NCBI GenBank assembly: GCA_964490895.1
Contig: CAZBEI010000118.1
Location: forward strand, 482 to 64,481
Source: an uncultured Bdellovibrio sp.
Lineage (GTDB): Bacteria > Bdellovibrionota > UBA1018
Direction: 5' to 3'
DNA length: 64,000 nucleotides
The position numbers and the translations under genes are program-made. Shown here in pieces: positions 15,862 to 52,878 of this stretch (its first letter is position 1; each line of letters begins with the position of its first letter). The notes under the pieces are model-generated. The model did no database searches. It saw only the letters and a list, made by a program, of their open reading frames with translations, and was not told the DNA's origin.

Positions 15862-17184
15862 TTAAATTTTCCAAAATGGATAGAACAATATTTTTTTGCT
15901 TTTGTTAAAATAAGGTGCACCTCCATAGAGCACCACTCCAAACGGGAGTTTCCATTTAGAAATGACACACTCGAGTAACTCTGTATTTTTTATTTCATTT
16001 AATTGATGCGTCTTCTTGACTTCTATGGGAACAAGTCGCTCCCCTAATTTAAATATAAAATCGATTTCACCGGGTAAAAAATCCAAGGAGTCATTTACAG
16101 CTTTATAGGCAAAGTTTTTGTAATAATAAATATTGGCTTTTAGAGGAAGTTTTTCCTGCAAAGCGTTGAGGCGCGAGTGCACATAGGCCTCCAGTCTATA
16201 TCCTGCTTCAGATTCCTTAAAATCCAAATGGGCTGTATAATAAGTCACTAGACTTGGGTCTATCCATGAATAAATTGCAAAATATGTTTTTTTAAGATTT
16301 TCATACTCTGCCAGGTAGGGCCTTTTTTTTATTAAGTACCCATGATTCAATAAGTGATCAATCACTTTGTCGACCCCATTGCGCTTAGAATTACGTAAAA
16401 CTTGATGGATCCCCTTATAGGTGAATTCTTTAGAATTCAAACTTGCCAAGTACTGTCTCACTTCGTCGTCTCTGGCTACTGTGGTTTCATAGTTTTCTGT
16501 AATGCCTCTTTCGGCTACCAGTTTGATCTCTTGGAGAGCGCGTTGCTCACCCTTTGCAAAAAAGGCCTTGGGCAGCCCTCCGTAGATCAAATACTGATCT
16601 AAAACAGGTACAATTTTCTGATCCCATTTTTCGGATTCAATCGATACCTCTTGCGGTGGAGTCCAGTCCGCTATGATCTTCTCAAATGGAGCCAACTCTT
16701 CTTGCAATGCTGAGGTGTTCATTATTTTCTTATGAACCAAAATTTCTTTCAAAGAAAAGGGTGTTAACGTCATGACTTCGGCTCGACGCTGAAGTCGGTT
16801 TTTTGCTTCAGTTTTTAAAAATGCAGGATGTGATCCTGAAACAATAAACGACACTTTAGCTTCGTCATAAGCAATCTTGACAGCATCAAAAATTTCCGGT
16901 TCTTTTTGGATCTCATCCACAAATAAGATCACCTTTTTTAGGCCACGAGAGTGAATTTCGTTCGAAATAAATCTGGTATTTTCTCTAATTTGTGACCTAA
17001 ACGCAACATCGTCACCTGTATATTGTAAAACATCAAAGCCTTTTTTCTCTAGTTTTTCTAAAAGTTTTGTAACGAGCGTTGTTTTTCCGCAGCCCACTAT
17101 TCCGGGTAATATAATTCCTGTAGGATGTTGGTCTAAAATCTTATTTTGAATTTGAAATAACAATTCGCGTTCTACAAAGTCCAT
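15862..17184 (-). CDS. AAA+ ATPase fused to a DUF4143 (PD-(D/E)xK-like) C-terminal domain, COG1373 family, paralog 1
   Basis: 440 aa with P-loop GIVGCGKTTLV, Walker B VILFVDEIQ and C-terminal EIDFIFKLGERLVPIEVKK (D...E-x-K). The stop codon is 4 nt downstream of the tRNA-Ala 3' end. Confidence 0.7.
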   Translation of the reverse strand: MDFVERELLFQIQNKILDQHPTGIILPGIVGCGKTTLVTKLLEKLEKKGFDVLQYTGDDVAFRSQIRENTRFISNEIHSRGLKKVILFVDEIQKEPEIFDAVKIAYDEAKVSFIVSGSHPAFLKTEAKNRLQRRAEVMTLTPFSLKEILVHKKIMNTSALQEELAPFEKIIADWTPPQEVSIESEKWDQKIVPVLDQYLIYGGLPKAFFAKGEQRALQEIKLVAERGITENYETTVARDDEVRQYLASLNSKEFTYKGIHQVLRNSKRNGVDKVIDHLLNHGYLIKKRPYLAEYENLKKTYFAIYSWIDPSLVTYYTAHLDFKESEAGYRLEAYVHSRLNALQEKLPLKANIYYYKNFAYKAVNDSLDFLPGEIDFIFKLGERLVPIEVKKTHQLNEIKNTELLECVISKWKLPFGVVLYGGAPYFNKSKKILFYPFWKI

Positions 17185-17260
17185 GCTTATCTATAAATAT
17201 CTCATTTTATTTCTAGATTTACAAGTAAATTAGATATTTAATTTTTAAATTTATACCCCT

Positions 17261-18142
17261 TTATCTAGGCACGAACCCACGCATCTTGGGGATTGTTTCG
17301 TGGCAATCCACAGGCGGGTAGTTAATAAACTCGAGGAGTTGGAGCCTCTCCTCTGCACCGGTCAAAACCAGTGGGGTTCCACCAGCTCTGGGTGCTGGGG
17401 CGTTTGCATTCACCTCAGTCTTTAACCCAGTCCAAAGGTCGATAAAATAAAGTTCAGTGTTCTGGGTATTATTTGTTTTGTCATTGATCACCCCAGCAAT
17501 TTGGACATTCATTTCCTGGATATCGTCGATGCAAATAGATTGAGTGGTTCGCGGATTTTGGTCACTATGTACAATGATAATAGAAAGACCAGGTCGGTTT
17601 GGATCTCTGCAGGGGATATCTGCCGCTCTGATCGAGTCTTGTACTGTGTTCCCAGCTACTGTATTCGCAGGGATATCAATCATTGCGTTGTTTAAGACGT
17701 TAAACTGACAACACAAAATAAAAACTTGGTCTATGGGAGGATTGGGGTTAAGTGCTGCTGGAGGCACTGTGCGTCTTTCTCTAAAAGCAAATCTGTCATT
17801 AAAGCAAACTCTCATGTCTCCTCTCAACACAATGGCTCCTTGTCCGGCAATTCGGTATGTGTTTAGATTATCTGGCGTTGCATCATTTGGTGGGTGAGGA
17901 GCTCCTGGTGGAAGTTGTGTAAACACTACTGTTTCCGCTCTCCTAAATGCATAATCAATCACTCCGTGGAGAGTGTCTTTGCCAAACTCAAAGCTCCCAA
18001 TATTTTCTGTGCTTTTGCTTAATTGCGAAACTTGCTTGAGTTGTTGAGTGGCAACAAGGGCTACAATAACTGCCAATCCCGATGCAATAATCACTTCGGC
18101 AATGGTAAATCCAGAAGTACCTAAGGCTTCTTTCTTTTTCAA
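17261..18142 (-). CDS. type IV pilin-like / pseudopilin protein with prepilin N-terminus
   Basis: 293 aa. The N-terminus GTSG|FTIAEVIIASGLAVIVALVA fits a class III signal with Gly-1, Phe+1, Glu+5 and a hydrophobic helix. Confidence 0.6.
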   Translation of the reverse strand: MKKKEALGTSGFTIAEVIIASGLAVIVALVATQQLKQVSQLSKSTENIGSFEFGKDTLHGVIDYAFRRAETVVFTQLPPGAPHPPNDATPDNLNTYRIAGQGAIVLRGDMRVCFNDRFAFRERRTVPPAALNPNPPIDQVFILCCQFNVLNNAMIDIPANTVAGNTVQDSIRAADIPCRDPNRPGLSIIIVHSDQNPRTTQSICIDDIQEMNVQIAGVINDKTNNTQNTELYFIDLWTGLKTEVNANAPAPRAGGTPLVLTGAEERLQLLEFINYPPVDCHETIPKMRGFVPR

Positions 18143-19263: not shown

Positions 19264-19467
19264 TAAAAACCACTCACGTTTTTTTAAATTAAAATTACTT
19301 ATTAATGCCGCCCCATTTGCAGTATGGTATTATTTTAGTATAATATTATATAAAGGTTAAGTCTTTTTTTATAAGGGGTGGAATTAAATGAAATCACATC
19401 AAAAAGGCAGCGTGCTACTGATGGTCCTCGGCATCTTGGAAGTGGGCATTAGGGAGTTAAATAGGAT

Positions 19468-19893
19468 TCATGAAAGCACGTTAAACCCTTCTTTAATCGC
19501 CGCCCTTGCAAGTTGTTCATCAAATGTCACAAAATTGAGTCTGCTTGGGTGATCATCACAGGCCACTAAGGCTGCGGCGAGTTGAAGCGAATCAGAAGCC
19601 TGCAAAACATGTGCTCCTAAAAGTCGTTCAGCCTTTTTTTTAACTTGGGTGGTATGAGTGACCTCCATCCAAAGGCGGTCTAGTTTTTTTAGGTTTTTAA
19701 AACATCCCTTTAAAACCACTTCGGAAAGTTGTTTTGTCCTTTCTCTTCGATAAAGAGCAGAGAGGCATTCTACAGAAGTAAAACACCAAACCACAATTTT
19801 TTTAGTTTGTCCTAAGAGCTCAAGAGAGTGAGGGGTTCTTGTCTCTTCGACTAAAAGAGGAACAACAGCAGAGGAGTCCCAAAAGGTGATCAT
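19468..19893 (-). CDS. vapC: PIN-domain toxin (VapC-like)
   Basis: 141 aa with conserved acidic residues at FWDSSA, ASDSLQLAAA and FVTFDEQL, overlapping the upstream antitoxin by 4 nt. Confidence 0.65.
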   Translation of the reverse strand: MITFWDSSAVVPLLVEETRTPHSLELLGQTKKIVVWCFTSVECLSALYRRERTKQLSEVVLKGCFKNLKKLDRLWMEVTHTTQVKKKAERLLGAHVLQASDSLQLAAALVACDDHPSRLNFVTFDEQLARAAIKEGFNVLS

Positions 19894-20234
19894 CTCCCCT
19901 CTCTACGATCTTTTAAGAGCTGCTCTAAAACCCCAGCAGGGCCACTCCCACAGGAGATGTTTTTTTTAAGTTCATCTATCACAGCCCGATTTAACACCCC
20001 TTTTCCGCGTGAGATCATCCCCTTTGTCTCTAATTGCTGCAAATAGACTTCTTCTTCATTGTATAAAAATTTTTCGATCGGAGTAATTTCTGCAATGGGT
20101 GTGTTTCGTTCAAAAACACGTACAGTTTCGCCTTTTTTTACAAGGACAAGAAATTCGCTGAGGTGATTTTTTAGTTCTGCTATATTGGCCTTTCTCATAT
20201 AGCTATGATAGCTATATTTAGAGCTCGAAGTCAA
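19890..20234 (-). CDS. Phd/YefM-family antitoxin
   Basis: The segment ANIAELKNHLSEFLVLVKKGETVRVFERNTPIAEITPIE is Phd/YefM-like. The true start is probably the internal Met at about 20198. Confidence 0.55.
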   Translation of the reverse strand: MTSSSKYSYHSYMRKANIAELKNHLSEFLVLVKKGETVRVFERNTPIAEITPIEKFLYNEEEVYLQQLETKGMISRGKGVLNRAVIDELKKNISCGSGPAGVLEQLLKDRREGR

Positions 20235-20280
20235 TGGGAATTTCAGTCAGTCTGGCTGGAGATGCTGTTCCTTTTGGTGT

Positions 20281-20411
20281 TTAAATTAGGCAATAACATT
20301 AGCAGCTTAAAACATCATTTGACGAAAACGGTGCATTTATTTATTATATAACGATAGTTCAAGTGCTTTATTGGGGGACGTATGAAGTCAGGGGTGCTAA
20401 AAATAATAAAC
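20281..20411 (+). repeat. partial, diverged copy of the ~170-bp promoter-plus-start repeat (copy A0)
   Basis: Carries TTGACG-N17-TATTAT and ATG AAG TCA GGG GTG CTA AAA ATA ATA AAC (MKSGVLKIIN), matching the start of the 793-aa gene at 22670. The reading frame is cut after 10 codons by the MITE. Confidence 0.6.
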
Positions 20412-20988
20412 GTGACTGTTCAGCCTCATTCTTCAGGCTCGGTGTAAAAACTACGGCGGCCATTCCGGTGTGGGCCAGTTATTTTGAAATAAAATATAAA
20501 GAAACTCTTGGATGTTTTTCTGAAAGTATCTTTTAATACCCACAAGATCTCTTCCCCACTCCACAATTCGAGACCAAGCGAGATCATCCCAAAAGCGTTT
20601 TAGGGCTGGCTGCCCCTTCTTTGCTCCTGTCATCACTCGGGCAATGAGGCCTGTTCTTTTCTCTGCTTCTTAAAGAAAGGAAAATGCATCTGTTTTTCTT
20701 GTTTTTTCATTCGCCTGTCCCGGTTGTGTTGTATAGGATACGAGCAATGTTATTTCAACCCTATTTTTTTATCCAATGGTCTAATTATTTTATTTTAAAA
20801 ACATAGTAATTTTTCATTTTGTAAACTTTTGCAAACATTTATAAACTTTTTCACAGCTTTTTATGCTGTGCGAACACACATGCACTTGTAAGGCCTGAAA
20901 ATATCTTTTTTTTATAAGTCCACCCCGGGGGCCACCGGGGGTCTATCGCTTTTTAAACCAAGCCTGCAGAATGAGGCTGAACAGTCAC
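20412..20988. mobile_element. non-autonomous MITE-like element with ~40-bp imperfect terminal inverted repeats
   Basis: Left end GTGACTGTTCAGCCTCATTCTTCAGGCTCGGTGTAAAAAC, right end ...AAACCAAGCCTGCAGAATGAGGCTGAACAGTCAC as its inverted complement. Length is 577 bp, the only internal ORF is a 61-aa one without motifs, and there is a GC-rich palindromic core (CCCCGGGGGCCACCGGGGG). Confidence 0.6.
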
Positions 20989-21014
20989 GGTTTTTTTTAT
21001 TATTTTCAAGCGCT

Positions 21015-21184
21015 GGGCTCTCAATCGATACCATGAAAGAGGTCGATGAAAAATTAAAACACGTTCTTGATCTTAACTAATTAAGCAATAAAATAAACAA
21101 CCTAGGAGGATTGTTGACTGACTTAAGTTAGTTATTTATTATATATAAATATAGTTCAGATATTTTATTGGGGAACGTATGAGA
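21015..21184 (+). repeat. ~170-bp direct repeat copy A1 (flanks ATPase paralog 2 on one side)
   Basis: About 90% identical to 22511..22680, including TTGACT-N17-TATTAT and an ATG. Here the ATG opens only a 9-codon ORF. Confidence 0.7.
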
Positions 21185-21204
21185 GATGGCTATGTGGCTT
21201 TTGG

Positions 21205-22386
21205 CTAACTCCAATAACTCCACGGCAAAAGACAGACTCCCTGTTTCGGAAGATGGACGGTATTGACAGGGGCGAGAAGAACAGCCCGTTTGACTCCAAG
21301 AGCCTTCATAGCGCCTGTCAAGCTGCGCGCATGGTACTCCATTTGAGAAGGGGCAATTGTTTCGCTCATGATTTTTATCGGTATGTTTTGCCAAACAAGA
21401 TCAATCACAGGACCATGAATGCTTTTATAATAATTTTTACGCATCACAAACCTTTGGTACTCATTAAAACAAAAGATCTCGTTTAATAAATAATGCCTAG
21501 CAATAGAGAGACTGACTTCTGGTCCAGTTTTTATTGGGGAAAGATGGAATGCTAGCCCAGAATCTCCAAACATCCAATGGTCATTACCCACTCCAGGTTC
21601 CTGGACAGTAAATCTCCTGAGAAAAAAAATATTTTCAAGTGCCTGAATGTAACGTTTTGCTTTTCGCTTGTCACCTCTCACATAACTCAAGGAGGGATAA
21701 TCAGCGTTAGGAAGAGCTTTGGCTAGCATCTGAATTAACGAAAAACAATAATCAGGATCAAACCCCTTTCCGTAAGCACGCGCTGCATCGCGGACAATTG
21801 TTGTGTCAAGCCAGTTATTCCAATATTCCTTGCACATATTCTCGTCGCGAATAAAGGCAGGAACTGGGAGACCTCCTGATCTCATTTGCACAGACAAATC
21901 TTCAAACTTAAATCGTGGTGTCGAGGGAGACAGGAAGTGTGACTCATTTTTAATAGTTTTCTGAGATTGTTGATGGATTTCACCAAAACACATGGGGTAA
22001 AGATGCAACAAGCCAATTCTACCAGTTAATGATTCTCGAACACCTATTTTTTGTGAAAACGCAACTGATCCGGTCAAAAACCACTGGCCAGGGATTTTTT
22101 TTCTGTCTACCAGTGATTTAATCGAATCAAATAATAGGGGTGCTTTTTGAACTTCATCAAGTACGGTAGGGGATCCCTGGTGTCTACTTAGAAAAACGCG
22201 AGGTGCGGCTAGGGCTTCAGCTCTCATTTCTTCGTCATCAAAACTGAGATAGTTTTTAATCCCAATGCGATCTCTCAGCAAAGTAGATTTGCCAACCTGT
22301 CTCATCCCGAGTACTCCAACAATTGGCCAGAAACTAGCCATTTTTTTTATTTTTACCTCACTAAAACGAGGTCTTTGGTGTGGCAT
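21205..22386 (-). CDS. AAA+ ATPase with DUF4143-like domain, COG1373 family, paralog 2 (nuclease-like motif degenerate)
   Basis: 393 aa with P-loop GMRQVGKSTLL and Walker B TVLDEVQ. The C-terminal region VIDLVWQNIPIKIMSE lacks the E-x-K seen in the other three paralogs. Confidence 0.65.
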   Translation of the reverse strand: MPHQRPRFSEVKIKKMASFWPIVGVLGMRQVGKSTLLRDRIGIKNYLSFDDEEMRAEALAAPRVFLSRHQGSPTVLDEVQKAPLLFDSIKSLVDRKKIPGQWFLTGSVAFSQKIGVRESLTGRIGLLHLYPMCFGEIHQQSQKTIKNESHFLSPSTPRFKFEDLSVQMRSGGLPVPAFIRDENMCKEYWNNWLDTTIVRDAARAYGKGFDPDYCFSLIQMLAKALPNADYPSLSYVRGDKRKAKRYIQALENIFFLRRFTVQEPGVGNDHWMFGDSGLAFHLSPIKTGPEVSLSIARHYLLNEIFCFNEYQRFVMRKNYYKSIHGPVIDLVWQNIPIKIMSETIAPSQMEYHARSLTGAMKALGVKRAVLLAPVNTVHLPKQGVCLLPWSYWS

Positions 22387-22510: not shown

Positions 22511-22680
22511 AGCTCTCAATCGATACCATGAAAGAGGTCGATGAAAAATTAAAACACGTTCTTGATCTTAACTAATTAGGCAATAAAATAAACAGCTTAG
22601 GAGGATTGTTGACTAATTTAAATTAGCTATTTATTATATATATAGTTCAGATATTTTATTGGGGGACGTATGAAATCAGG
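22511..22680 (+). repeat. ~170-bp direct repeat copy A2 (promoter, RBS and start of the fibrinogen-domain gene)
   Basis: Direct repeat of 21015..21184. It lies between the divergently oriented ATPase paralog 2 and the 793-aa gene. Confidence 0.7.
22609..22637 (+). promoter_or_regulatory. sigma-70-like promoter of the 793-aa gene
   Basis: TTGACT-17 nt-TATTAT about 30 nt upstream of the GGGGGA RBS and the ATG at 22670. The same architecture occurs in copies A1 (21114..21142) and A0. Confidence 0.5.
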
Positions 22681-25051
22681 GGCATTAAAAATAATAAATA
22701 TAATGACCAGAAACCACCGTGGGAATACCCTCATGCTTGCCCTCCTGTTTACGGGCGCAGCAAGCGTGATTGGCTTAGGTATATTGGCCGCTATTGAAAC
22801 AGGACGCAAGCAGCAGGGAATCCGGATTGAAGAGAGTAACCCAGCGGCATTTCTTTCCTTACTGACGGGTAAGACTATTGAGGACATTTCTAAAAATTAT
22901 TACTGCCCTCAAAAAAGCACCAATGAAACTATCACTTTTACTCAATTTTTTGATAAGCTGAGAACAGACGGAAAACTCAACTCTAGAGGCCATCTGTCTA
23001 TTCCTCTTTTAGGCAAGTCAGAATATCTCATTAAAACTCCCAATGGAGTAGTGAGATCAGAAATAGATCCAGCATCAGAGGTTGCACTAATAGGAGCTGG
23101 AACACCCAATGAGCAGCTGGTGATACAAATTACGGTATCACTCTGCAGGTATGCACAAGCTGCAGGAGTTGCATGTCCTCCTGCACTTATTCTCCCCTCA
23201 ACTGTTTATAAAGCTTATATTAATAACACGAAAATACTGGAGCCATGTGGGAGCGCATTGCCTACTCCAACTCCATTTCCTGCTTCTTTTGTATTTATTG
23301 ATTCTGCAACAAATCTGCCTGCGCAAAAAGACGGCGCAAATCATATCTTAGAAGTTGGGGAAAGATATTTTGTTTTAGCTTCGATTGGGAAACCACCAGG
23401 CACAAGTGTAAATTATATTGTGAATTTTTCTCCAAGCAGTGGACCCTACTTTCAGCTCACATCCACTGGAGCAACAGCTCTCGTAGATGCAAGCGGAAAA
23501 TTCAGAACTACAGATCTCCATTTTAATAGAAACGCAAATCCTAACCTCAATGTTCCTCCGGGTCCTTATATTGCAAGTGTTGGAATCGGGACAGACCCCG
23601 TCCTCACAACCCCTGTGGTCGTAGTTCAGCCTGCCTGTGTTAACACAAGAAAACCACAATCTTGTTTGCATCTATTAGAATTAGATCAGAGCAAAAAAAA
23701 TCAGGATGGAATTTATACTATCGACCCAAACCAAGATGGAAAAAATCTACCAGTTTATTGTGACATGACAACAGATGGAGGGGGGTGGACACTTTTTGCA
23801 AATAATAACAGTCCAGGTTTTCCTGGAGGATGTCTGAGTGGTTTAAACCCCACTTTAGCTCTTGGAACCGATAAACGGACTGTTAACGCTCTGGCCTCAA
23901 AACCACCAAACAGTGTTGCAAGAATGGTCATAAATGGAAGTGCATCTAACGGCCAACCCTTTTCCTTTGATGTAAAACAAAGTGGTCTAACAGGCGCATT
24001 TCAGCCCAATATGGGGTGCAATATACCTAGCGAAGGTAATGCTCTTTACCAAATTCCTAACTTTACTCAGGTTATTTCGCAATCAAATGCTCAGGTTAGT
24101 TCTGGAAGTAATCCACTGGGAGTGCGAGTGGACTCCGGGGGTACTGCCGATTTTCAAATTCTTGGAGGTAAAGGAATAAGAATTGGAACGGGATTTCCAC
24201 CCGTACTTCCCCCCCGAAAAGCAACGGGAATTCTTTGGATGCCACAGAGTAACCAAGCGCTTCCATATGCAAATCAAATGAATATCCGATGGTTATGTTA
24301 TAGCCCTCAAAATCTATGTCCGACACTCCATCCTGATACTGGAAATAGAGTGACTTCGATGCAGCTTTTTTACAGAGAAGATGTGGCTGATTTACCCGAG
24401 GATCCATGTATTCCTCCCGGAGCAGTTTTGTGTGAGCTAGCTCACGGAGGACCCGGCTCTCCTGGTGGGAGTGTTGCCTGTCCAGGCAGGAAGAAAATCT
24501 TAGGCGGTGGATTTAGATATTCGAGTGATGGGACTTTTCCGTATCAAAATGGTTGGGGAGCAACTGGTTACACAAGTGGAATACCCCGTGAAGCTTTTGC
24601 TATTTGCTGTAACCATGTGGGATCTCTTGATTTGAAGTCTGGACGACAGGTAAGCAATCTCTATCATAATGTAGCTTTTGCACCCATTCAGTGCGAAAGC
24701 GATGAAATCGCTGCGAGCGCAGGGGGGATTAGTTCTTCTGGTGGATCTGTGTCTTGCTCTCCTGATATGAACAATATTTCGAAATTTAATTGTAATATGG
24801 TAGCAATTCCAAACGACCTTTTTCTGTATGCGATGTGCTATAAGAAGCCTCCAATTCCGTCTAAATTTGAATGGATTAAATCTTCTGGTTCTGTTGCTAC
24901 ATGTAAATCAGGAACTAAACTTATTTCTGGCGGGTTTTCTTGCAGTACAGGAGTTTTTGGTGTTGGCTATGCTATTCCAAACTTAATCAACAACACCTAT
25001 TCCGTAAGCTGTGCTGGATCAACATATGCACTCTGTGTGGACGAAAATTAA
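22670..25051 (+). CDS. large secreted/anchored protein with a fibrinogen-related domain and duplicated Cys-rich C-terminal modules, probable adhesin/lectin
   Basis: 793 aa with a hydrophobic N-terminal anchor or signal. DGIYTIDPNQDGKNLPVYCDMTTDGGGWTLFANNN matches the fibrinogen C-terminal domain hallmark (VYCDM-TDGGGWTV). Two C-terminal repeats follow the pattern C.G.K.L.GGF...C. Confidence 0.7.
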   Translation: MKSGALKIINIMTRNHRGNTLMLALLFTGAASVIGLGILAAIETGRKQQGIRIEESNPAAFLSLLTGKTIEDISKNYYCPQKSTNETITFTQFFDKLRTDGKLNSRGHLSIPLLGKSEYLIKTPNGVVRSEIDPASEVALIGAGTPNEQLVIQITVSLCRYAQAAGVACPPALILPSTVYKAYINNTKILEPCGSALPTPTPFPASFVFIDSATNLPAQKDGANHILEVGERYFVLASIGKPPGTSVNYIVNFSPSSGPYFQLTSTGATALVDASGKFRTTDLHFNRNANPNLNVPPGPYIASVGIGTDPVLTTPVVVVQPACVNTRKPQSCLHLLELDQSKKNQDGIYTIDPNQDGKNLPVYCDMTTDGGGWTLFANNNSPGFPGGCLSGLNPTLALGTDKRTVNALASKPPNSVARMVINGSASNGQPFSFDVKQSGLTGAFQPNMGCNIPSEGNALYQIPNFTQVISQSNAQVSSGSNPLGVRVDSGGTADFQILGGKGIRIGTGFPPVLPPRKATGILWMPQSNQALPYANQMNIRWLCYSPQNLCPTLHPDTGNRVTSMQLFYREDVADLPEDPCIPPGAVLCELAHGGPGSPGGSVACPGRKKILGGGFRYSSDGTFPYQNGWGATGYTSGIPREAFAICCNHVGSLDLKSGRQVSNLYHNVAFAPIQCESDEIAASAGGISSSGGSVSCSPDMNNISKFNCNMVAIPNDLFLYAMCYKKPPIPSKFEWIKSSGSVATCKSGTKLISGGFSCSTGVFGVGYAIPNLINNTYSVSCAGSTYALCVDEN

Positions 25052-25121
25052 TCATGTTACTAGGAGTAAAAGTTTGAAAGTTGTGTAGAGCCAGGTTTTT
25101 TTTAAAATAAGGAGCTTATAA

Positions 25122-25523
25122 ATGAAAAAATATAGTTTTAATAATAGACAGCTTGTCCTAGTTTATGCCATTTTTTTGATGCTCAATCTTTTTATTAACA
25201 GTTTTTCGTACAGTGATGTTTCTCAAGTTTCTAATGTAATACCGAATAATGACATTGTGGTCCTTTGTGCAAAGGATCAAACAATGACACCAACGAAGTG
25301 TTTAGAAAGCTCTAAGCCCAGTTATACACAAGTGGGGTGTCAGGATTTAGCAAATGGTTCTTGTTCGGAAGTCGACACCAATATAAAATGTTTTCTTAAA
25401 AGCAGTAATTGCAAAGCTGTTCAAGAAAACAATAGAACTTGTCCAAATGAGTTTAGACTTGTAGATGCAATTGAAAATGTAACAAAATATTCTGTCTTTG
25501 TTGAACTCTGTATTAAAAACTAA
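25122..25523 (+). CDS. small secreted cysteine-rich protein (10 Cys)
   Basis: 133 aa with a signal peptide, a good RBS (AGGAG) and tight linkage to the fibrinogen-domain gene. Confidence 0.5.
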   Translation: MKKYSFNNRQLVLVYAIFLMLNLFINSFSYSDVSQVSNVIPNNDIVVLCAKDQTMTPTKCLESSKPSYTQVGCQDLANGSCSEVDTNIKCFLKSSNCKAVQENNRTCPNEFRLVDAIENVTKYSVFVELCIKN

Positions 25524-25527: not shown

Positions 25528-25558
25528 CCTACTCCATCCTCACCAAAGGCTCCGGAAA
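25528..25558. repeat. 30-bp direct repeat, copy 1 (CCTACTCCATCCTCACCAAAGGCTCCGGAAA)
   Basis: Matches 26867..26897 at 28 of 30 positions. On the minus strand it lies in frame immediately after the ATPase paralog 3 stop and would encode SKFPEPLVRME*. Confidence 0.7.
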
Positions 25559-25564: not shown

Positions 25565-26782
25565 CTATATAAGAGCCTGTAAAAATTTCCAAGCTGGCAG
25601 AACCCGTATCCCTCCATTTTTATAGTCGCCATCTGAGTTGAGAACAACCTGGTAGCTTTCTTTAATTTCTAGTCGTGTATTAAAATAGATAAGTTGTGGA
25701 GAAATTGCCGTATCACTCACTTTTGCCTCAACAGTGAACCAAGGTTTGCCGTCACAGAGAACCAAAAAATCTACCTCTCTTTTTTCTTTGTCTCTTAAGT
25801 AACAAAGCTCCATTTTATAGCCGGCATAATCAGTATAGAAATGGCAAAACTTCAAAAGATGGCTTGCGACGAGATTTTCAAAACGAGCGCCTGGATTAGA
25901 AATGATGGCCCAATCCCAAAGATACATTTTGGGTTCCTTTTTAAGAGAGCGGGTTTTTTTAACTGCAAAGGGTCTCATTCGATACAAAAAATAAAGTCTC
26001 TCTAATATGTCAATCCAATGTGAAATGGCTTTGTGCGAAGTGTCCAAATCCTCTCTTAAGGAATTAATTGACAGTGGGGAACCGGCTCGAGAGGGTAAAA
26101 TATCACATAACGTTTCAATCCCAGATAAGTCAGGAAGATTTTCTAGATCTCGAATGTCTTCTTTAAAAAAACGGTCTAATCTTTCATTCTGCCAACGCCT
26201 CAACTTACGTTGACTTTTCTTTAAAAAAGGCTCTGGAAAACCGCCAAACTCTATTAAGTCTGATAAAGTAGAAATGCTTTCATTTTTTTTACTTAAATCT
26301 TTCGGAATCTGTAGTGGAGCAAATGGTACTATTTCCTTTTCGCCCGGTAGAGAGAGCCCGAGAGCCTCTGCTAAAGTAAAAGGGTGCATCCGATAGAGGT
26401 GGTATCTTCCCTGCATAGAGTCTCCTCCTTTGCGATACACGTCTAATCTTGCGCTTCCTGTCACTAAAAATTTTCTATCGTCTAGGTGTTTATCATAAAT
26501 ACCTTTGACGAAATTTTTCCATTTTTTGTATTTGTGAATTTCGTCAAAAATGATGACCTCGGCATCTGACTTCCAAAGTGACTTTAGAATTCTTTTTCGG
26601 TCTTCTCTGTTGTCCCAATTCAAATAATCCACTTGACTTGGGGAGAACAAATTTTTTGAAAAAAAGGTTTTTCCAACTTGTCTAGGACCTGCTAAAAAGA
26701 CCATCTTTTCTTTTAAATCCTCTAAAACTGGCTTTGATAAATATCTTTCCAATGGGCAATGTCCTTTCTCAAGTAAGCTCAA
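25565..26782 (-). CDS. AAA+ ATPase fused to a DUF4143 (PD-(D/E)xK-like) domain, COG1373 family, paralog 3
   Basis: 405 aa with P-loop GPRQVGKTFF, Walker B IIFDEIH and C-terminal EVDFLVLCDGKPWFTVEAKVS (D...E-x-K). Confidence 0.7.
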   Translation of the reverse strand: MSLLEKGHCPLERYLSKPVLEDLKEKMVFLAGPRQVGKTFFSKNLFSPSQVDYLNWDNREDRKRILKSLWKSDAEVIIFDEIHKYKKWKNFVKGIYDKHLDDRKFLVTGSARLDVYRKGGDSMQGRYHLYRMHPFTLAEALGLSLPGEKEIVPFAPLQIPKDLSKKNESISTLSDLIEFGGFPEPFLKKSQRKLRRWQNERLDRFFKEDIRDLENLPDLSGIETLCDILPSRAGSPLSINSLREDLDTSHKAISHWIDILERLYFLYRMRPFAVKKTRSLKKEPKMYLWDWAIISNPGARFENLVASHLLKFCHFYTDYAGYKMELCYLRDKEKREVDFLVLCDGKPWFTVEAKVSDTAISPQLIYFNTRLEIKESYQVVLNSDGDYKNGGIRVLPAWKFLQALI

Positions 26783-26823
26783 AGATAGGATACGACTTTT
26801 TTAGCCTATAGGCAAAATTATTC

Positions 26824-26858
26824 ATGACTTTTTTATCTAGTTGGATAAAAAAGTCATA
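26824..26858. terminator. perfect 14-bp stem hairpin (ATGACTTTTTTATC-tagttgg-GATAAAAAAGTCAT), probable bidirectional terminator or cassette-end structure
   Basis: Perfect inverted repeat with T/A runs, located between the peptidase stop (26868) and the ATPase paralog 3 start (26782). Confidence 0.5.
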
Positions 26859-26866: not shown

Positions 26867-26897
26867 CCTACTCCATCCTCACCAAGGGCCCCGGAAA
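26867..26897. repeat. 30-bp direct repeat, copy 2 (CCTACTCCATCCTCACCAAGGGCCCCGGAAA)
   Basis: Encodes the C-terminal FPGPLVRME* of the C39-like peptidase and is a direct repeat of 25528..25558. Confidence 0.7.
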
Positions 26898-27512
26898 GGC
26901 ACCGAGCCCTTTGGCTCCCTTTATAAACACTCCCAAATGAGAATACCTCCAGAGTTTTCCGTGCCGGTCTTCGTAATCATGCCAGCGCTCTAAAAATTCG
27001 TCTTGCGGCAGATAGACGTACCCATGTGGCAACGAAGGATCCATCGTATAAATATACGTTTCGTCCATGGCGATCAAGACGACATAATGGCCCTCCTCCC
27101 AGGTTTCGCTCCAAGGCTTTTGAGGCTTCGACTCATCCCGCCAAGCTTGCAATGCTAAGATCACGGTTTCGCCTCGCAAAAGTGCTAAGCGCAAATCCGA
27201 AAGCTCCAGATTTTCTTTCATCTCTGCTTTTAGCCCATAATGCTTGGCTCCACTCAGCAGTTTTTGTGGTTCCGTGCCATCTTTTTTAGTTGTTTTGAGG
27301 AGAGAGTAGAGTTTTGTCTCAGGCCCACTGTAAACTCCCCAGTAATTCAAAACTCCAAGCAGCGCAGCAGCTCCACAGCTGTATTCGCGAGCTTGTCTAG
27401 TGATCGGTACGGGCAAGTGGTTTTTTGGCAAGAGTGGTTCTTGTGTGCCCACTTGGGCAAAACTATTTTGAATTCCAAGTAAAACACCTAGAAGCAACGC
27501 TATTTTTATCAA
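26868..27512 (-). CDS. secreted papain-like cysteine peptidase, C39-like
   Basis: 214 aa with a signal peptide, catalytic-Cys context QAREYSCGAAALLGVLNYWG and His region EEGHYVVLIAMDE. Confidence 0.6.
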   Translation of the reverse strand: MIKIALLLGVLLGIQNSFAQVGTQEPLLPKNHLPVPITRQAREYSCGAAALLGVLNYWGVYSGPETKLYSLLKTTKKDGTEPQKLLSGAKHYGLKAEMKENLELSDLRLALLRGETVILALQAWRDESKPQKPWSETWEEGHYVVLIAMDETYIYTMDPSLPHGYVYLPQDEFLERWHDYEDRHGKLWRYSHLGVFIKGAKGLGAFPGPLVRME

Positions 27513-27569: not shown

Positions 27570-28688
27570 CTACCAAAGTGCGGCTTTGAACCCTGGGATC
27601 CCAAAAGCTAGCAGAATAAAATTGGGAATCAGCATGGCTACGATAGGGTTAAAACTATAGTCAGAGGCAGCCATCGTGCCAACAGTGAGAGTGAGCCAAT
27701 AAACTAAAACGACACCCAAAGAAATCAGCACGGCTCCTGTTTTTACAGCTCGAGTACGGATAGTGCCATATCCAATTCCCAAAAAAACAAAGAAAAAAGG
27801 AGTGACCCCCACCATGTACCTTCTCCAAAGCTCTGTGAGATATTCTCGATAAACCCGAGTGTCTTTGGGGGTGTTGTGTACAAGGTGTTTCAATTCTGTA
27901 TAGGGGATCATTTTTGTTTTCCGAGTTGCAAAGCCAGAGCCCTCGTTGACTTCCAAGTAGAGTTGATATTCGTTAAAATCTATTTTTTGATAGGTGCGCT
28001 CTTCGAGATCGCTGCGATGAATGTTTCCAGAGTACAGTTTGAGGATCGCTGCAGCTCCAAGCTCAGTAGCTGGTTTCAGCAAAATAATCTCACCTTCTTT
28101 GGCGACAACGGTGACCGGAGTTTTAGGCTCTCTTTCATCATAAATAAAGACATTTTTGAGATGATTGGTGGCCGTATCAAAATGGTCTGTAAAAATAAGA
28201 AGGTCAAAAAAGCCACTCGTAAAAGCGCCTGCCCGAAGTGAGCTCACTGTTTTCGTTTCGCTCACTTTGATCAAAGTAGACTTAAATAACTGCTCCCCTC
28301 GTGGAACCCATTCTAAGTTCAGTCCCAGAGATAATAAAGAGATGATGAGTGCAAAAATAAAGACAGGGGCAGAAAGTCTTAAAACACTGATTCCAGAAGC
28401 CTTTAGCGCCACCAGTTCACTGTCAATTGAGAGTCTCCCAAAGGCGATCAAAATGCTGAGCAAGAAAGCAATGGGGAGAGCAAAGGGTAAAAAAGACAAC
28501 AGAAGCAAGGATGTCAATTTTGATAGAAGCAAAAAAGAAACCCCATGGACGATAAAAAATTCGGCCAATCTCAAAATTTGAAACATCAAAAAAATAAAGA
28601 GAAAAAAAAACACTCCCCCGAAAAAAGGCCCAATAATCTCTGAGAGGACATAAAAATCTGTGATTCTAAATCCCCACCTAGTACGCAT
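27570..28688 (-). CDS. LPS export ABC permease, LptF/LptG (YjgP/YjgQ) family
   Basis: 372 aa with six predicted TM segments and the typical N-terminus (FRITDFYVLSEIIGPFFGGV), followed by a periplasmic domain. Confidence 0.7.
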   Translation of the reverse strand: MRTRWGFRITDFYVLSEIIGPFFGGVFFFLFIFLMFQILRLAEFFIVHGVSFLLLSKLTSLLLLSFLPFALPIAFLLSILIAFGRLSIDSELVALKASGISVLRLSAPVFIFALIISLLSLGLNLEWVPRGEQLFKSTLIKVSETKTVSSLRAGAFTSGFFDLLIFTDHFDTATNHLKNVFIYDEREPKTPVTVVAKEGEIILLKPATELGAAAILKLYSGNIHRSDLEERTYQKIDFNEYQLYLEVNEGSGFATRKTKMIPYTELKHLVHNTPKDTRVYREYLTELWRRYMVGVTPFFFVFLGIGYGTIRTRAVKTGAVLISLGVVLVYWLTLTVGTMAASDYSFNPIVAMLIPNFILLAFGIPGFKAALW

Positions 28689-30078
28689 TTTTATTGATAA
28701 ACCCTTTCCAGAGGGTAGAGGCCATAATTTTGAAATCTAATCCAAAAGACCAGTTTCGAATGTAATAGAGATCGCACTCAATTCTTTCTGGAAGTGAGGT
28801 GTTGCCTCTCCATCCGTGGATCTGAGCCCAGCCTGTCATTCCAGCTTTTACTTTGTGCCTAAGCATGTAATGAGGAATGTCTTGCCGAAACTGACTCACA
28901 AAAAAAGGCCGCTCTGGCCTTGGGCCCACGAGGGACATTTCGCCTTTGAGGACATTCCAAAGCTGGGGAAATTCGTCCAAGCTGGTTGCTCTCAAAAATC
29001 TTCCAAACCCAGTTCGTCTTGGATCTTTGCACTTCGCCCAAGTTGCTCCAGACTCTAACTCGGCGTCTCTCTGCATGGTCCGAAACTTGATCATCTCAAA
29101 AGTTTGGCCATCTAAGCCCATTCTCTCTTGAAAATAAAACACAGGGCCCTTTGAGGTAAGCCTAATGACTAGGGCAATCAAAAATAGAAAAGGAGAAAAC
29201 AGAACAAGGGAAAAAGCAGAGAGTAAAAAATCAGCCCCTCTTTTGGCCACGCCTCCCCAGCCTTCCAGTGGCGAATCATTGAGATTGAGCACAGGTAGCC
29301 CTTCGAAATCTTCGACCTCACAACCGAGCGTCACATATTCATGCACATCTGGAACCAATAAAATATCGAGTGTTTCATCGTGCAAGTCTTTTAGGAGGGA
29401 GTCTAACTCTTCGGCGTGCTTTCGAGGAAGCGCAATTAAAACTTGGTCCACGGAGTTTTGATCCAGGACTTTTTTAATGTCTCGCAAATGCCCTAGAACA
29501 GGCTTATGGTTGACATGGCTCAATCCTGAGCTCTCATGGGTCAAAACCCCCACCACTTTTAGGCCCAGTTCTGGAAATTTGTCGATCTTAGAAATCAGCT
29601 TTTCGAGCAATGGGCCCTCGCCTACACCCAGGACATACCTCAGATTGTAGCCTTTTTTGCGGATGGCCCTGAGTCCGTTTCTTAAGATCAAACGAAATAC
29701 GATGAGGAAAAAGAGTCCGAGAGAGGCAAAATACACCATGACTAACCGAGAGTATTTGTATTCGCTAAAGAGGTAGGTCAGGGCAATAAAAAACAAGAGC
29801 GCTGTTCCATGGGCTTTGATCAAAAGGTGGACCTCATGGGTACGCCTCAGCATTCTCTTGGATGTATAAACCCGCAGCCCAGAAAAAACCAAAACCCACA
29901 AGATCATCACAAGAGGAGTCAGTGCAGCATATTGTGAGAATGGGGGGAGCCCTTTAGAGACTTCGATGATCGGATATTGAAATCTTAAAATATAGGACAA
30001 AAGCCATGCCGCGCCTATGACGGCGGCATCTACAACCCGAAAAATACCACCTACTATTTTATGATAACGCTTCAACAT
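28678..30078 (-). CDS. undecaprenyl-phosphate sugar phosphotransferase (WbaP/WcaJ-type bacterial sugar transferase)
   Basis: 466 aa with an N-terminal TM cluster and the C-terminal bacterial sugar transferase motif [24 protein letters not shown]. Confidence 0.75.
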   Translation of the reverse strand: [466 protein letters not shown]

Positions 30079-31632: not shown

Positions 31633-31638
31633 ATTCAA

Positions 31639-46148: not shown

Positions 46149-46162
46149 AGTGTGCCATGCAT

Positions 46163-48405: not shown

Positions 48406-48461
48406 GAACCCCCTGACGAACCCCTGACTCTAAGGATAACAGCCCTTTGGAATAGAGCAAG

Positions 48462-50157: not shown

Positions 50158-50176
50158 TCTTGCTTGGTATGAGCGC

Positions 50177-51169: not shown

Positions 51170-51305
51170 TTAAATTCGCACTCCTTGTGATTTTATTTTC
51201 TATTATTTTAGGCGGAAAAGTGTGGGTGTTTCCAGAAAAAGGACGATTTATTATGGAGGAAATGACACAACACTAGCCATGCATAGTGGGGGGAGTTTAA
51301 AAAAA

Positions 51306-51397
51306 CAGTGACTGTTCAGCCTCATTCTGTAGGCTCGGTGTAAAAACGGGAGTGGCCGCCGTAGGTTTTACACCGAGCCTGAAGAATGAGGCTTAGG
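51306..51397. mobile_element. foldback remnant of the 20412-20988 MITE (both TIRs separated by 17 nt)
   Basis: GTGACTGTTCAGCCTCATTCTGTAGGCTCGGTGTAAAAAC-gggagtggccgccgtag-GTTTTACACCGAGCCTGAAGAATGAGGCT. The spacer is the complement of CTACGGCGGCC found just inside the left end of the long copy. Confidence 0.6.
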
Positions 51398-51714
51398 CAT
51401 TTCTAAACAACATCTTTGCGATATAGAAAAAGGCAGAAAACTTGTGAGTCCAGAGCGTGCTGCAAGATATTGTGAGCCGCGATGGTTTAGCCTATCGGGT
51501 AGAGCTAAAGCTGGCGTAGATTCCTGCCCCAAATAGGCTCTAATCCCTCAGTAGATTGTGGGAGGGGCATGAGCTTTTTTGGTGGAGGTAAATCTGGTGA
51601 CAAAGTGCACTTCCGGCGCCGAAGTAGAGGCTGGCCACAAAGTGGCTGAGCCGCGGCTCCTCTTCTTCAGAATAGAGTAGACATTGCTCCGCATATATCG
51701 GATAATATCGGAGT

Positions 51715-52878
51715 ATGGTCGACCGACTCTTTCGGGGCACAGGCTCAAACAGTTTTTTTATTTTTGGACCAAGGGGTGCTGGAAAATCCTACTGGCTGAA
51801 AAATAAATTTGCAAATAGGAGTGACGTTTTTTGGCTAGACCTGTTAGACGATGCCACTGAGGAGGCCTATTCTCAAAAACCAGGGCTACTGCGAGAAAAG
51901 CTACTTAAAAAGCCGTATCCTCACGTGGTCATCGACGAAGTGCAAAAAATTCCAAAGCTGTTGGACATCGTACATCTGTGTATTGAAAATCTAGCTACAA
52001 AGAGAACCCAGTTTATCATGACAGGCTCAAGCTCTCGCAAGCTTAAGCGAGGTGGGGCAAATTTGCTGGCTGGGCGGGCATTTCTTTATTTCATGCACCC
52101 GTACTCAGCAAGAGAACTGGGAGTAGATTTTGATCTCTCATCTGCTTTGTGCTACGGCATGCTTCCCAAGGTTCATGAGCTCGGAACCCCCGAAGATAAA
52201 AAAGAGTTCCTGAAGTCGTATGTCAGAAACTACTTAAAAGAGGAGATACGGATTGAACAGCTTGTTCGAAAACTAGATCCATTTCGGAGATTTCTCGAAG
52301 TTTCAGCGCAGTGCAATGGCAAGATTATCAATTTCAGCAACATTGCCAGAGATGTGGGCGTAGACGATAAGACGGTTGAGAATTACTACTCCATCTTAGA
52401 AGATACTTTGATTGGATTTTTCTTGCCTGCTTTTCACCGATCGATTCGTAAACAGCAGCATCAAGCGCCAAAGTTTTACTATTTTGATACTGGGGTGAAA
52501 AAAACTCTTGAAAACACACAAGACGTTCTTGTTGTCCCTGGTACCTATGAGTATGGCAATGCATTCGAACATTTTATTTTGTTAGAAGTCATGAAACTTA
52601 ATGAGTACTCACGGAAAGATTATAGATTTTACTACCTGCGTACGAAAGCTGGTGTCGAAATTGATTTGGTCATCGAAAGACCAGGAATGCCCTATGCATT
52701 AGTGGAGATCAAATCCTCAAATAGAGTTCAAGATCGAGATTTAAATGCGCTGCTCAGTTTTTCGAAGAACTTTAAAAAACCAGATCTTTTTTGCTGGTGC
52801 AATGAAAAAACAGGCCGCATTTCTAAGGGTGTGACTCTACTCAATTGGGCAGAAGGCATCAAAGAAGTGGGTTTGTAG
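51715..52878 (+). CDS. AAA+ ATPase fused to a DUF4143 (PD-(D/E)xK-like) domain, COG1373 family, paralog 4
   Basis: 387 aa with P-loop GPRGAGKSYWL, Walker B VVIDEVQ and C-terminal GVEIDLVIERPGMPYALVEIKSS. Confidence 0.7.
   Translation: MVDRLFRGTGSNSFFIFGPRGAGKSYWLKNKFANRSDVFWLDLLDDATEEAYSQKPGLLREKLLKKPYPHVVIDEVQKIPKLLDIVHLCIENLATKRTQFIMTGSSSRKLKRGGANLLAGRAFLYFMHPYSARELGVDFDLSSALCYGMLPKVHELGTPEDKKEFLKSYVRNYLKEEIRIEQLVRKLDPFRRFLEVSAQCNGKIINFSNIARDVGVDDKTVENYYSILEDTLIGFFLPAFHRSIRKQQHQAPKFYYFDTGVKKTLENTQDVLVVPGTYEYGNAFEHFILLEVMKLNEYSRKDYRFYYLRTKAGVEIDLVIERPGMPYALVEIKSSNRVQDRDLNALLSFSKNFKKPDLFCWCNEKTGRISKGVTLLNWAEGIKEVGL

Follow-up and report, generated by a model that had tools for sequence, protein, structure and literature searches.

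The 64-kb window analysed here, a stretch of the chromosome of an uncultured, Bacteriovoracaceae-like member of the Bdellovibrionota, carries four mutually distant members of the COG1373 family, catalogued in PADLOC as PDC-S01 and termed p1 to p4 below. All four open reading frames are intact, and checking of their translations placed them exactly where the original prediction had: p1 at 15862–17184 (minus strand, 440 amino acids (aa)), p2 at 21205–22386 (minus strand, 393 aa), p3 at 25565–26782 (minus strand, 405 aa, TTG start codon) and p4 at 51715–52878 (plus strand, 387 aa). HMMs from three subfamilies, searched against all six-frame open reading frames of the window, recovered exactly these four copies and no fragments of further family genes. 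The proteins share 20–31% identity with one another, and each resembles proteins of other organisms more closely (best outside relatives at 56% for p1, 77% for p2, 53% for p3 and 57–58% for p4); they are therefore four separate lineages or subfamilies, not local duplicates. Accordingly, the genes are paralogous, as had been proposed, at the level of the superfamily, but not in the sense of recent paralogues. GC content is low in p1 (0.375, z = −1.9) and p3 (0.379, z = −1.8), and base composition is ordinary and native-like in p2 and p4. The sequence of p3 is identical in two read-set assemblies.

Each protein consists of an AAA+ ATPase domain (AAA_14, PF13173, resembling those of ORC/Cdc6, clamp loaders and STAND proteins), a helical lid, a winged helix and a C-terminal PD-(D/E)xK domain (DUF4143, PF13635). 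The P-loop and Walker B motifs predicted for the ATPase are present in all four translations (Walker A GCGKT, VGKST, VGKTF and AGKSY, and Walker B DEIQ, DEVQ, DEIH and DEVQ, for p1 to p4, respectively). Searches against Pfam found AAA_14 in all four (74–93 bits; E = 2.5e-21, 8.8e-25, 2.6e-26 and 1.1e-20 for p1 to p4), and DUF4143 exceeded its gathering score in p3 (86 bits, 2.7e-24) and p4 (119 bits, 1.7e-34) only; the isolated C-terminus of p1 reached 25.9 bits (cut-off 28.1; E = 9e-6) and that of p2 did not score against this model. Profile–profile alignment with hhalign nevertheless matched p1 (99.1% probability, E = 1.3e-18) and p2 (99.7%, E = 2.4e-26) to the p4 family over their full length, which shows that both are full-length homologues. 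The PADLOC PDC-S01 HMM also matches all four proteins (p1 1.7e-25, p2 2.4e-45 over residues 3–288 only, p3 1.1e-47 and p4 6.8e-60), and together these searches uphold the proposed COG1373-type architecture. The best whole-chain fold matches are SSO1545 (2fna), PABY2304 (2qen), Cdc6/Orc1, RFC, TnsC, MuB and STAND proteins.

The C-terminal strings from which a nuclease had been proposed are present as described (EIDFIF..PIEVKK in p1, VIDLVW..IKIMSE in p2, EVDFLV..TVEAKV in p3 and EIDLVI..LVEIKS in p4), and p1, p3 and p4 retain the E...D...ExK set. In p1, E332, D375, E388 and K390 are conserved in its subfamily; in that of p4, E285, D317 and K333 do not vary, and E331 is almost invariant. The p2 motif is degenerate, as had been noted: E303, D329 and K338 remain, and proline takes the place of the acid in (D/E)xK (IPIKI). 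Column counts over the 40 sequences of the p2 subfamily, which are uniform in length and have a mean column identity of 55%, show this acid to be absent; the subfamily is thus well conserved, retaining the fold and the E, D and K while having lost the acid of (D/E)xK. In AF2 models of p2 (pLDDT 92.9) and p4 (pLDDT 81), the C-terminal domain has the order alpha-beta-beta-beta-alpha-beta, and the E, D and ExK residues sit on the expected secondary-structure elements. The sole, weak matches of the C-terminal profile in the PDB are Hjc, YraN/UPF0102 and Cas4, with the D...ExK motif aligned for Hjc and UPF0102, and among the weak Pfam matches of C-terminal fragments are the HSDR_N, NERD, Hjc and UPF0102 nuclease families. 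DUF4143/COG1373 has been placed in the PD-(D/E)xK superfamily (Steczkiewicz et al. 2012, PMC3424549), and the Pfam, model and profile evidence agrees with this assignment. The nuclease fold is thus predicted from sequence profiles and models, the whole-chain structure searches having been dominated by the ATPase.

The stop codon of p1 (15862–15864) is separated by 3 nt from a convergent tRNA-Ala(cgc) gene on the plus strand (15786–15858; ARAGORN; Rfam tRNA, 58 bits), the only tRNA in the window; its 3' end is not repeated elsewhere in the window. Upstream, p1 follows two same-strand genes at a distance of 76 nt. Between p1 and p2 lies a type II toxin–antitoxin pair on the minus strand, comprising a PIN toxin (19468–19893; Pfam PIN, 7.7e-4) and a Phd/YefM antitoxin (19890–20234; PhdYeFM, 6.3e-7). 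At p4, the neighbouring discontinuity is a 95-bp remnant with two inverted arms (51299–51393), 92–94% identical to the arms of a terminal-inverted-repeat (TIR) element near p2 and located 322 nt upstream of p4. This remnant is abutted by a truncated XRE-type helix-turn-helix frame (51396–51536, plus strand) with weak matches to the C-terminal half of the Pfam models HTH_31 and HTH_3 (E = 0.06–0.1), and a promoter-like site is found at 51678–51706, ahead of p4.

The region of p2 contains three copies, all on the plus strand, of the beginning of the 793-aa gene at 22670–25051. Copy C (22512–22673) provides this gene with its functional promoter and start, and forms the right direct repeat of the p2 segment, in which 1329 nt lie between the two repeats. 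The left direct repeat, copy B (21017–21182), reproduces the upstream region, promoter-like site, ribosome-binding site (RBS) and ATG of the same gene, and is continued by a 9-codon open reading frame that runs toward the 3' end of p2; copies B and C measure ~166 nt and share a 131-nt core at 95% identity. Copy A (20284–20410) matches the promoter, RBS and first codons at 64–83%, includes a promoter-like TTGACG-17-TATTAT at 20319–20347, and is ended by the TIR element ('MITE'; 20398–21002), a non-autonomous element of ~605 bp with 53-nt terminal inverted repeats (87% identity), no Rfam family and no convincing open reading frame. Compared with a relative in Bdellovibrionota FG-1, nucleotide homology of p2 ends at the limits of the gene, and the flanks are unrelated.

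The p3 gene lies in a segment of similar size, 1308 nt, between two 31-nt repeats that differ by two mismatches. The right repeat (26867–26897) is the true 3' end of a C39 peptidase gene (26868–27512; Pfam Peptidase_C39), and the left repeat (25528–25558) is a copy of the last nine codons and stop of that gene. At the boundary of the segment, GC content falls sharply from 0.479 to 0.379. A terminator-like scan found a hairpin with a 15-bp stem (26823–26858, minus strand) 8 nt inside this boundary, between the stop of the peptidase gene and the start of p3, which follows this same-strand gene at a distance of 85 nt. Given these short distances to same-strand neighbours, the claim that none of the four genes is in an operon is not supported for p1 and p3.

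Each gene thus stands, as the original prediction held, at a structural discontinuity: a tRNA end, two different pairs of direct repeats and a TIR remnant. Short tandem arrays aside, the window has no strong repeats other than these flanking repeats and the TIR element with its remnant, and no other tRNA, so that their position beside the four genes is not due to chance. Being bounded by repeats is not, however, a trait of the family, since no flanking repeats were found at seven homologous genes in five other loci. In the searchable collections, which include no close relative, an empty site did not turn up; the p3 site is filled in both of the independent read-set contigs. The region to the left of LptG is without counterpart in the nearest relatives, which have no family copy at the corresponding positions, and the block 27570–32946 is inverted with respect to them. 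The four genes may best be described as accessory genes acquired independently in a variable, rearranged stretch. To judge from the repeats, p2 and p3 would have come in as single-gene segments of ~1.3 kb, each insertion copying one end of the host gene beside it (at p2, 166 nt comprising promoter and start codon; at p3, 31 nt of 3' coding end); the adjacent gene would have been kept intact because its end was duplicated. This geometry is that left when a small circle integrates at a short shared sequence. Of the proposal that these are selfish, shuffled or defence-type cassettes, the accessory and horizontally shuffled character stands, and the defence-type idea is not new, as all four proteins belong to PDC-S01.

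The family is large, with 8,419 cluster representatives homologous to p3 (E ≤ 1e-3) and more than 6,699 homologues of p4, and it matches 340 plasmid records compared with 6 of 50,697 phage records. Genomes hold multiple, highly divergent copies with a patchy, cross-phylum spread. Gene neighbourhoods elsewhere vary and are not shared between homologues; frequent neighbours are known defence systems and genes for toxin–antitoxin modules, integrases or transposases, and one p1-like gene lies next to Wadjet, another member of the family and an SNF2 helicase. As a candidate, PDC-S01 emerged from 'guilt-by-embedding' in BREX, DISARM and type I RM loci (bioRxiv 10.1101/2024.01.29.577857; PMC12988326); among the candidate 'defence' genes of prokaryotes it is reported to be the fourth most common (PMC12988326). 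In the sole published phage challenge found, a representative gave E. coli no protection against T4, T5 and T7 (bioRxiv 10.1101/2024.09.26.614923), and a Thermus AAA_14/DUF4143 gene was induced 6.6-fold when plasmid DNA was present (PMC4406477). As originally stated, the function of the family is uncharacterised, no member having a demonstrated activity.

Among known systems, PDC-S01 itself agrees with p1–p4 in size (390–440 aa), in the order ATPase, winged helix and nuclease, and in single-gene organisation; nothing essential differs, although p2, matched only in part, belongs to a subfamily whose nuclease motif is non-canonical. Also among the closest is the archaeal ATPase family (Pfam ATPase_2, PF01637), to which SSO1545 and PABY2304 belong. 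McrBC likewise couples an AAA+ NTPase (McrB, itself among the fold matches) to a PD-(D/E)xK nuclease (McrC), but it has two subunits, is a GTPase and has a dedicated N-terminal DNA-reading domain, whereas p1–p4 are single polypeptides whose ATPase is ORC/RFC-like and which have no domain for reading modifications, so that the likeness is one of analogy only. STAND/Avs antiviral NTPases with nuclease effectors exceed 800 aa and have the effector at the N-terminus; p1–p4 measure 390–440 aa, have a C-terminal effector and are without a C-terminal repeat or sensor domain. The p2 and p3 segments resemble att-bounded small integrated elements, such as cis-mobilisable elements and integron-like cassettes, in being single-gene stretches of ~1.3 kb between direct repeats that copy the terminal part of an adjacent gene, as after site-specific integration, but have no recombinase, attC-like site or array; homologues elsewhere have no repeats, and neither excision nor an empty site was observed.

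The explanation that we favour, with a probability of about 0.55, is that p1–p4 are independently acquired members of PDC-S01 that act as NTP-gated DNA nucleases in conflicts with foreign DNA. The surroundings of the genes do not form a classical defence island: PADLOC models found nothing among the immediate neighbours, bar a weak match to PDC-M05A 1.2 kb from p4. Against this explanation stand the negative phage challenge, the ordinary base composition of p2 and p4 and the several homologues that lie amid housekeeping genes. That the genes instead serve mobile elements appears unlikely; in this view they would be maintenance or addiction functions, or nucleases of the homing type, belonging to small elements that are integrative or carried on plasmids, and the window copies would be left over from the decay of such elements. 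It would account for the plasmid records, for the Rpn and DDE transposases and toxin–antitoxin modules beside homologues elsewhere, for a p4-like gene (52% identity) between two paralogous tyrosine-integrase genes on Simkania pSn and, in the window, for the att-like repeats and the adjoining TIR element and remnant, PIN–Phd pair and truncated XRE gene. Yet plasmid and mobile neighbours are equally typical of defence genes and so do not discriminate; the open reading frames scanned around the four genes include no integrase or transposase, a tyrosine-integrase query found no match in the whole window, many homologues are solitary amid housekeeping genes, and the seven homologous genes noted above are without flanking repeats.

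Housekeeping neighbours, among them smpB, tsaD, argJ and folE-type genes, would be expected if these were host factors for repair, recombination, replication restart or gene regulation in a rearranged region, with the p2 type a nuclease-free DNA-binding ATPase. The close folds of ORC/Cdc6, clamp loaders, RuvB, Hda and MgsA, the strong conservation, confident model and missing ExK acid of the p2 subfamily, and the native composition of p2 and p4 are in line with this reading; we consider it improbable, as none of the loci examined has conserved synteny or an operon partner, the copy number and spread are atypical of housekeeping factors, and the nearest relatives have no copy at the corresponding positions. 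It is also conceivable, but very doubtful, that the repeats around p2 and p3 are unconnected with the genes, being by-products of local duplication or rearrangement in a hotspot that also gathered the TIR element. The older repeat copy A is broken by this element and the sequence beyond is not a continuation of the broken gene, which indicates several successive rearrangements; the inverted block and the repeat-free homologues point in the same direction. However, two distinct repeat pairs each surround exactly one family gene in segments of nearly equal length, each pair precisely duplicates the terminal part of a neighbouring gene, and the drop in GC content coincides with the p3 boundary.

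If p1–p4 are indeed conflict nucleases, binding of ATP would promote oligomerization on DNA by way of the winged helix, thereby licensing the nuclease, and the p2 type may be a non-cutting or non-canonical variant. The outcome would be an NTP-gated DNA nuclease directed against foreign DNA, as a defence or an addiction function. The four genes in this window represent a well-documented, ordinary case of a common and catalogued family, rather than a new kind of system.

Four open reading frames encoding AAA_14–DUF4143 proteins lie exactly where the original prediction placed them: p1 (15862–17184, minus strand, 440 aa), p2 (21205–22386, minus strand, 393 aa), p3 (25565–26782, minus strand, 405 aa, with a TTG start) and p4 (51715–52878, plus strand, 387 aa). 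All the strings quoted there (Walker A, Walker B and C-terminal) were seen in the translations. Pfam searches detected AAA_14 in every protein (74–93 bits; cut-off 27), so this half of the proposed domain pair holds throughout; the other half, DUF4143 (cut-off 28.1 bits), is matched by full-length p3 (86 bits) and p4 (119 bits) only. The isolated C-terminus of p1 scores 25.9 bits, slightly below the cut-off, with PF13635 being annotated in the precomputed Pfam data of most p1 homologues, and p2 has no Pfam DUF4143 match. NCBIfam offers no model or family-level name for any of the four. Each is nevertheless matched by the PADLOC model for PDC-S01, a candidate defence family (COG1373; E values of 1.7e-25, 2.4e-45, 1.1e-47 and 6.8e-60 for p1 to p4, respectively), and each is matched as a stand-alone gene. 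HMMs from three subfamily alignments, run against all six-frame ORFs of the window, gave a copy number of exactly four, with no fragments or pseudogenes of the family. STAND/Avs NTPases carry C-terminal sensor repeats; by contrast, p1–p4 end in a nuclease domain at 387–440 aa, and Pfam finds no repeat sensor domain (TPR, WD40 or LRR) after their NTPase.

The four proteins share only 20–31% pairwise identity (BLASTP), and the likeness of p1 to the other three is limited to the ATPase region. The closest outside relatives of p1 reach 54–56% identity and include an uncultured Bdellovibrionales MAG; p2 has its best relative in ‘Bdellovibrionota bacterium FG-1’ (77%), followed by a graded series down to 42%; the best outside relative of p3 stands at 53%; and p4, with more than 6,699 homologues, has best relatives at 57–58%, below which lies a 51–56% plateau that includes, among the matches listed, Deltaproteobacteria and Opitutae MAGs. 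A copy on a Simkania (Chlamydiota) plasmid shares 51.8% identity with p4. Because mutual identity is so low and much closer relatives exist elsewhere, p1–p4 are, as judged from their sequences, four separate subfamilies of one superfamily and not local duplicates. Profile–profile comparison (hhalign) between 40-sequence alignments of the p1, p2 and p4 families matched p1 to p4 with 99.1% probability (E 1.3e-18) and p2 to p4 with 99.7% (E 2.4e-26), in both cases from the P-loop through the last strands.

The full E…D…(D/E)xK set expected of a PD-(D/E)xK nuclease is present in p1 (E332, D375, E388 and K390), p3 (in the motifs RFEN, EVD and VEAK) and p4 (E285, D317, E331 and K333); within the p1 and p4 families, E388 and E331, respectively, are nearly invariant and the other three residues invariant. 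AlphaFold2 models of p2 and p4 display the order Rossmann-like ATPase, helical lid, winged helix and C-terminal alpha-beta-beta-beta-alpha-beta unit, with the conserved E carried by the first helix, D by strand 2 and ExK by strand 3; the p4 model has a pLDDT of 81, with its C-terminal 110 residues mostly at 90 or above. A p4 sequence search against the PDB gave nothing significant, and a profile of the C-terminal domain found only Hjc resolvase (E 0.055), UPF0102/YraN (0.57) and Cas4 (0.6), with D…ExK aligned in both printed alignments, those with Hjc and UPF0102. Among the weak secondary Pfam matches of the C-terminal fragments are nuclease families (HSDR_N, NERD, Hjc and UPF0102), and DUF4143/COG1373 has been listed as family 100 of the PD-(D/E)xK superfamily (Steczkiewicz et al. 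2012, PMC3424549). From profiles and models together, a PD-(D/E)xK fold of this domain is very likely.

The p2 motif had been described as degenerate. Its canonical acid is indeed lost, being replaced by proline in 32 of 40 family members (consensus IPIKI), but the presence of proline at this position in most of the subfamily makes the ‘degenerate’ motif a conserved subfamily trait. The p2 family otherwise keeps E303 (40/40), D329 (38/40) and K338 as lysine or arginine (39/40; 31 K, 8 R), and has a shortened hairpin between strands 2 and 3. The subfamily is uniform in length, with a mean column identity of 55%, and the AlphaFold2 model of p2 has a pLDDT of 92.9; p2 is not a decaying protein. 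Its motif would imply that cleavage has been lost or that the active site is non-canonical.

The surroundings of p2 and p3 bear insertion-type scars. Two copies of a 166-nt sequence (21017–21182 and 22512–22673), 95% identical over a 131-nt core, flank p2; this repeat corresponds to the upstream region, promoter-like TTGACT-17-TATTAT site, ribosome-binding site and ATG of the 793-aa gene starting at 22670. A third, older copy (20284–20410) is broken by a non-autonomous terminal-inverted-repeat (TIR) element of ~605 bp (20398–21002, no strand assigned) with 53-nt terminal inverted repeats, which matched no Rfam family and had neither a convincing ORF nor a clear target-site duplication. The interrupted gene does not continue past this element, which points to several overlapping events at the p2 site. 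In the left copy, the stretch 21114–21208 has kept the TTGACT-17-TATTAT site, the ribosome-binding site and the ATG with a nine-codon ORF, reading into p2 from its 3′ end in antisense direction; going by these signals, it could yield an antisense transcript. Overlapping genes for a PIN toxin and a Phd/YefM antitoxin (19468–20234) lie between p1 and p2, divergent from the third repeat copy.

The p3 gene is flanked by 31-nt repeats with two mismatches, the right copy being the last nine codons and stop of a C39 peptidase gene, and GC content, 0.479 in the peptidase gene, drops to 0.379 in p3. A perfect AT-rich hairpin with a 15-bp stem (26823–26858) lies between the peptidase stop and the p3 start, 8 nt within the right boundary of the p3 segment, and may serve as a terminator or operator or be related to recombination. 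Repeat-to-repeat spacing is 1329 nt for p2 and 1308 nt for p3, with one gene in each segment, and both duplications leave the neighboring gene intact. Two sequences lie between the two segments (22670–25523): the gene for the 793-aa protein, of which a short stretch is fibrinogen-C-like, and a Cys-rich 133-aa ORF whose GC content, 0.32, is unusually low; neither has clear homology, and both seem to be part of the same variable region.

The proposal that each gene sits in a repeat-bounded cassette holds for p2 (166 nt) and p3 (31 nt), which have target-duplicating direct repeats at both ends, but not for p1 or p4, for neither of which such flanking repeats were found. The p1 gene is convergent with a tRNA-Ala(cgc) across a gap of 3 nt (Rfam detected nothing in the window except tRNA); as the tRNA 3′ end occurs only once in the window, with no second copy, an att-type duplication is ruled out and p1 has no such scar. 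Two same-strand genes end 76 nt upstream of p1 and may be co-transcribed with it. A promoter-like site lies directly upstream of p4, which is 322 nt from a 95-bp remnant of the TIR element (51299–51393, no strand assigned) composed of two inverted arms, 92–94% identical to the element at 20398–21002. Right at the edge of this remnant begins a truncated XRE-type helix-turn-helix frame (51396–51536); since only the C-terminal half of HTH_3/HTH_31 is matched (E 0.06–0.1), this is probably a gene cut by the TIR element. Two overlapping small genes (54085–54953), 1.2 kb from p4, may form a toxin–antitoxin-like pair, judging by weak matches of the first to PDC-M05A (PADLOC, 1e-6) and of the second to a DUF2204 nucleotidyltransferase; PDC-M05 has been described as a nucleotidyltransferase and HEPN-domain pair (PMC12988326).

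Apart from this PDC-M05A-like gene, the neighbors of p1–p4 examined with PADLOC (nine of ten) gave no match, and a defence island around the four genes was rejected on this ground. A recombinase acting in cis was likewise rejected, Pfam having found no integrase or transposase domains in the neighboring ORFs, and tblastn no tyrosine-integrase homologue in the window.

The host is a Bacteriovoracaceae-like uncultured member of the Bdellovibrionota; with the mevalonate-diphosphate decarboxylase next to p1 as query, genome contigs gave relatives of at most 44% identity (Bacteriovoracaceae MAGs), with unshared neighbors. Metagenome contigs searched with LptG contained nearest relatives of 50–54% identity, in which the genes from 27570 to ~42000 are conserved, with the block 27570–32946 inverted. 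Nothing in these contigs matches 15.8–27.5 kb after LptG; the part of the window between tRNA-Ala and LptG, which holds three of the four genes, thus has the look of a variable region. Cumulative GC skew has its minimum near 29–30 kb, at a change of gene orientation marked by overlapping divergent genes (30061/30078), and the ~27570–32946 block could be a replication-origin-proximal inversion or a mere rearrangement breakpoint. The p3 segment is in place and 100% identical in short contigs from two independent read-set assemblies (ERR3478687 and ERR4904393); no empty site was seen, both read-set contigs having the p3 site filled and the relatives compared all being distant. An exact-protein look-up returned no record for p2. 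Nucleotide similarity between p2 and the FG-1 gene begins 18 nt upstream of the start codon and ends at the stop codon, and all flanking genes are different.

No two homologue contexts were alike among the loci compared, and a conserved partner gene was absent from every one examined. Homologues were found among smpB, tsaD and rRNA methylase genes, where the homologue forms a tandem with a further AAA_14 gene; next to argJ; adjoining folE/folB in a neighborhood that also has PIN, MazEF and HTH modules; on a Wolbachia plasmid, beside Rpn transposases and RelE; in Runella, beside a DDE transposase; and in Treponema, beside HigBA. In a Bacteriovoracaceae MAG (JADHTQ010000068, 886–11296), a p1-like gene is accompanied by a second AAA_14–DUF4143 gene, a SNF2 helicase, ATPase_2 and Wadjet JetABC, a defence-island-like setting unlike that of the window. 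On Simkania negevensis plasmid pSn (NC_015710, 4990–8206), a p4-like gene (52%) lies between two paralogous tyrosine-integrase genes, 83% identical over 524 nt, of which the upstream one is shortened; AbiE and transposases are also near.

Beyond the established family membership, architecture, catalytic residues, separate lineages, lack of a conserved partner and scars at p2 and p3, we infer that p1–p4 are independently acquired accessory genes. The p2 and p3 genes would have entered as small segments by recombination at short shared sequence, through either site-specific recombination in trans or Campbell-type integration of a circle. A rival explanation sees the repeats as coincidental by-products of a rearrangement hotspot. 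A bolder version of entry by recombination, in which AAA_14–DUF4143 genes travel as minimal ~1.3-kb single-gene integrative cassettes, self- or trans-mobilized, would have them insert right where a host gene ends and duplicate 31–166 nt of it, by means of a recombinase in trans or of the ATPase–nuclease itself in a homing-like self-insertion. We consider this very unlikely, at under one chance in ten, because repeats do not surround homologues elsewhere: none of the seven family genes in five homologue loci has convincing flanking repeats, so these were rejected as a family trait. None of the five loci has a nearby tRNA. If true, such cassettes would constitute a new class of minimal mobile element; their mobility would account for the abundance and patchy distribution of the family.

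As to function, the proteins may be DNA nucleases, gated by ATP and guided by the winged helix, that take part in conflicts with foreign DNA. Rival explanations are a function in mobile-element maintenance and a host role in DNA transactions, the latter being most plausible for the p2 type. Family matches number 340 among plasmid records versus 6 among 50,697 phage records, the six all being unannotated metagenomic contigs, and a phage origin was rejected. An AAA_14/DUF4143 gene that lies close to a CRISPR array in Thermus thermophilus is listed with a 6.6-fold expression change among genes affected by plasmid DNA (PMC4406477). The PDC systems, released as 145 untested candidates, derive from genes lying within BREX, DISARM and type I RM loci (bioRxiv 10.1101/2024.01.29.577857); when eight candidates were challenged in E. 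coli with T4, T5 and T7, four protected and the PDC-S01 representative did not (bioRxiv 10.1101/2024.09.26.614923), and we found no other published phage challenge of a PDC-S01 member.

The observation behind the original prediction was thus confirmed and its interpretation supported in part. The idea of a defence-type single-gene family was right in kind, all four genes matching PDC-S01, but is already in the literature, in which this family is characterized as a fusion of an ATPase with a PD-(D/E)xK domain and reported as the fourth most common prokaryotic ‘defence’, with 29,494 bacterial and 9,986 archaeal instances (PMC12988326). The four genes are further members of a known, abundant, uncharacterized family and represent no new type of system; only the conserved nuclease-degenerate subfamily of p2 and the two scarred insertions go beyond the ordinary. 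COG1373/PDC-S01 is among the most abundant of surveyed ‘defence candidates’ yet without demonstrated activity, and PDC-S01 matches should not be counted as proven immunity. For biochemistry, p1–p4 are useful in choosing constructs and controls, as one genome offers three canonical copies together with a naturally nuclease-degenerate one, all with confident structural models and with clear insertion scars around two of the copies. The window also gives evidence that members of the family are solitary accessory genes and not parts of operons.
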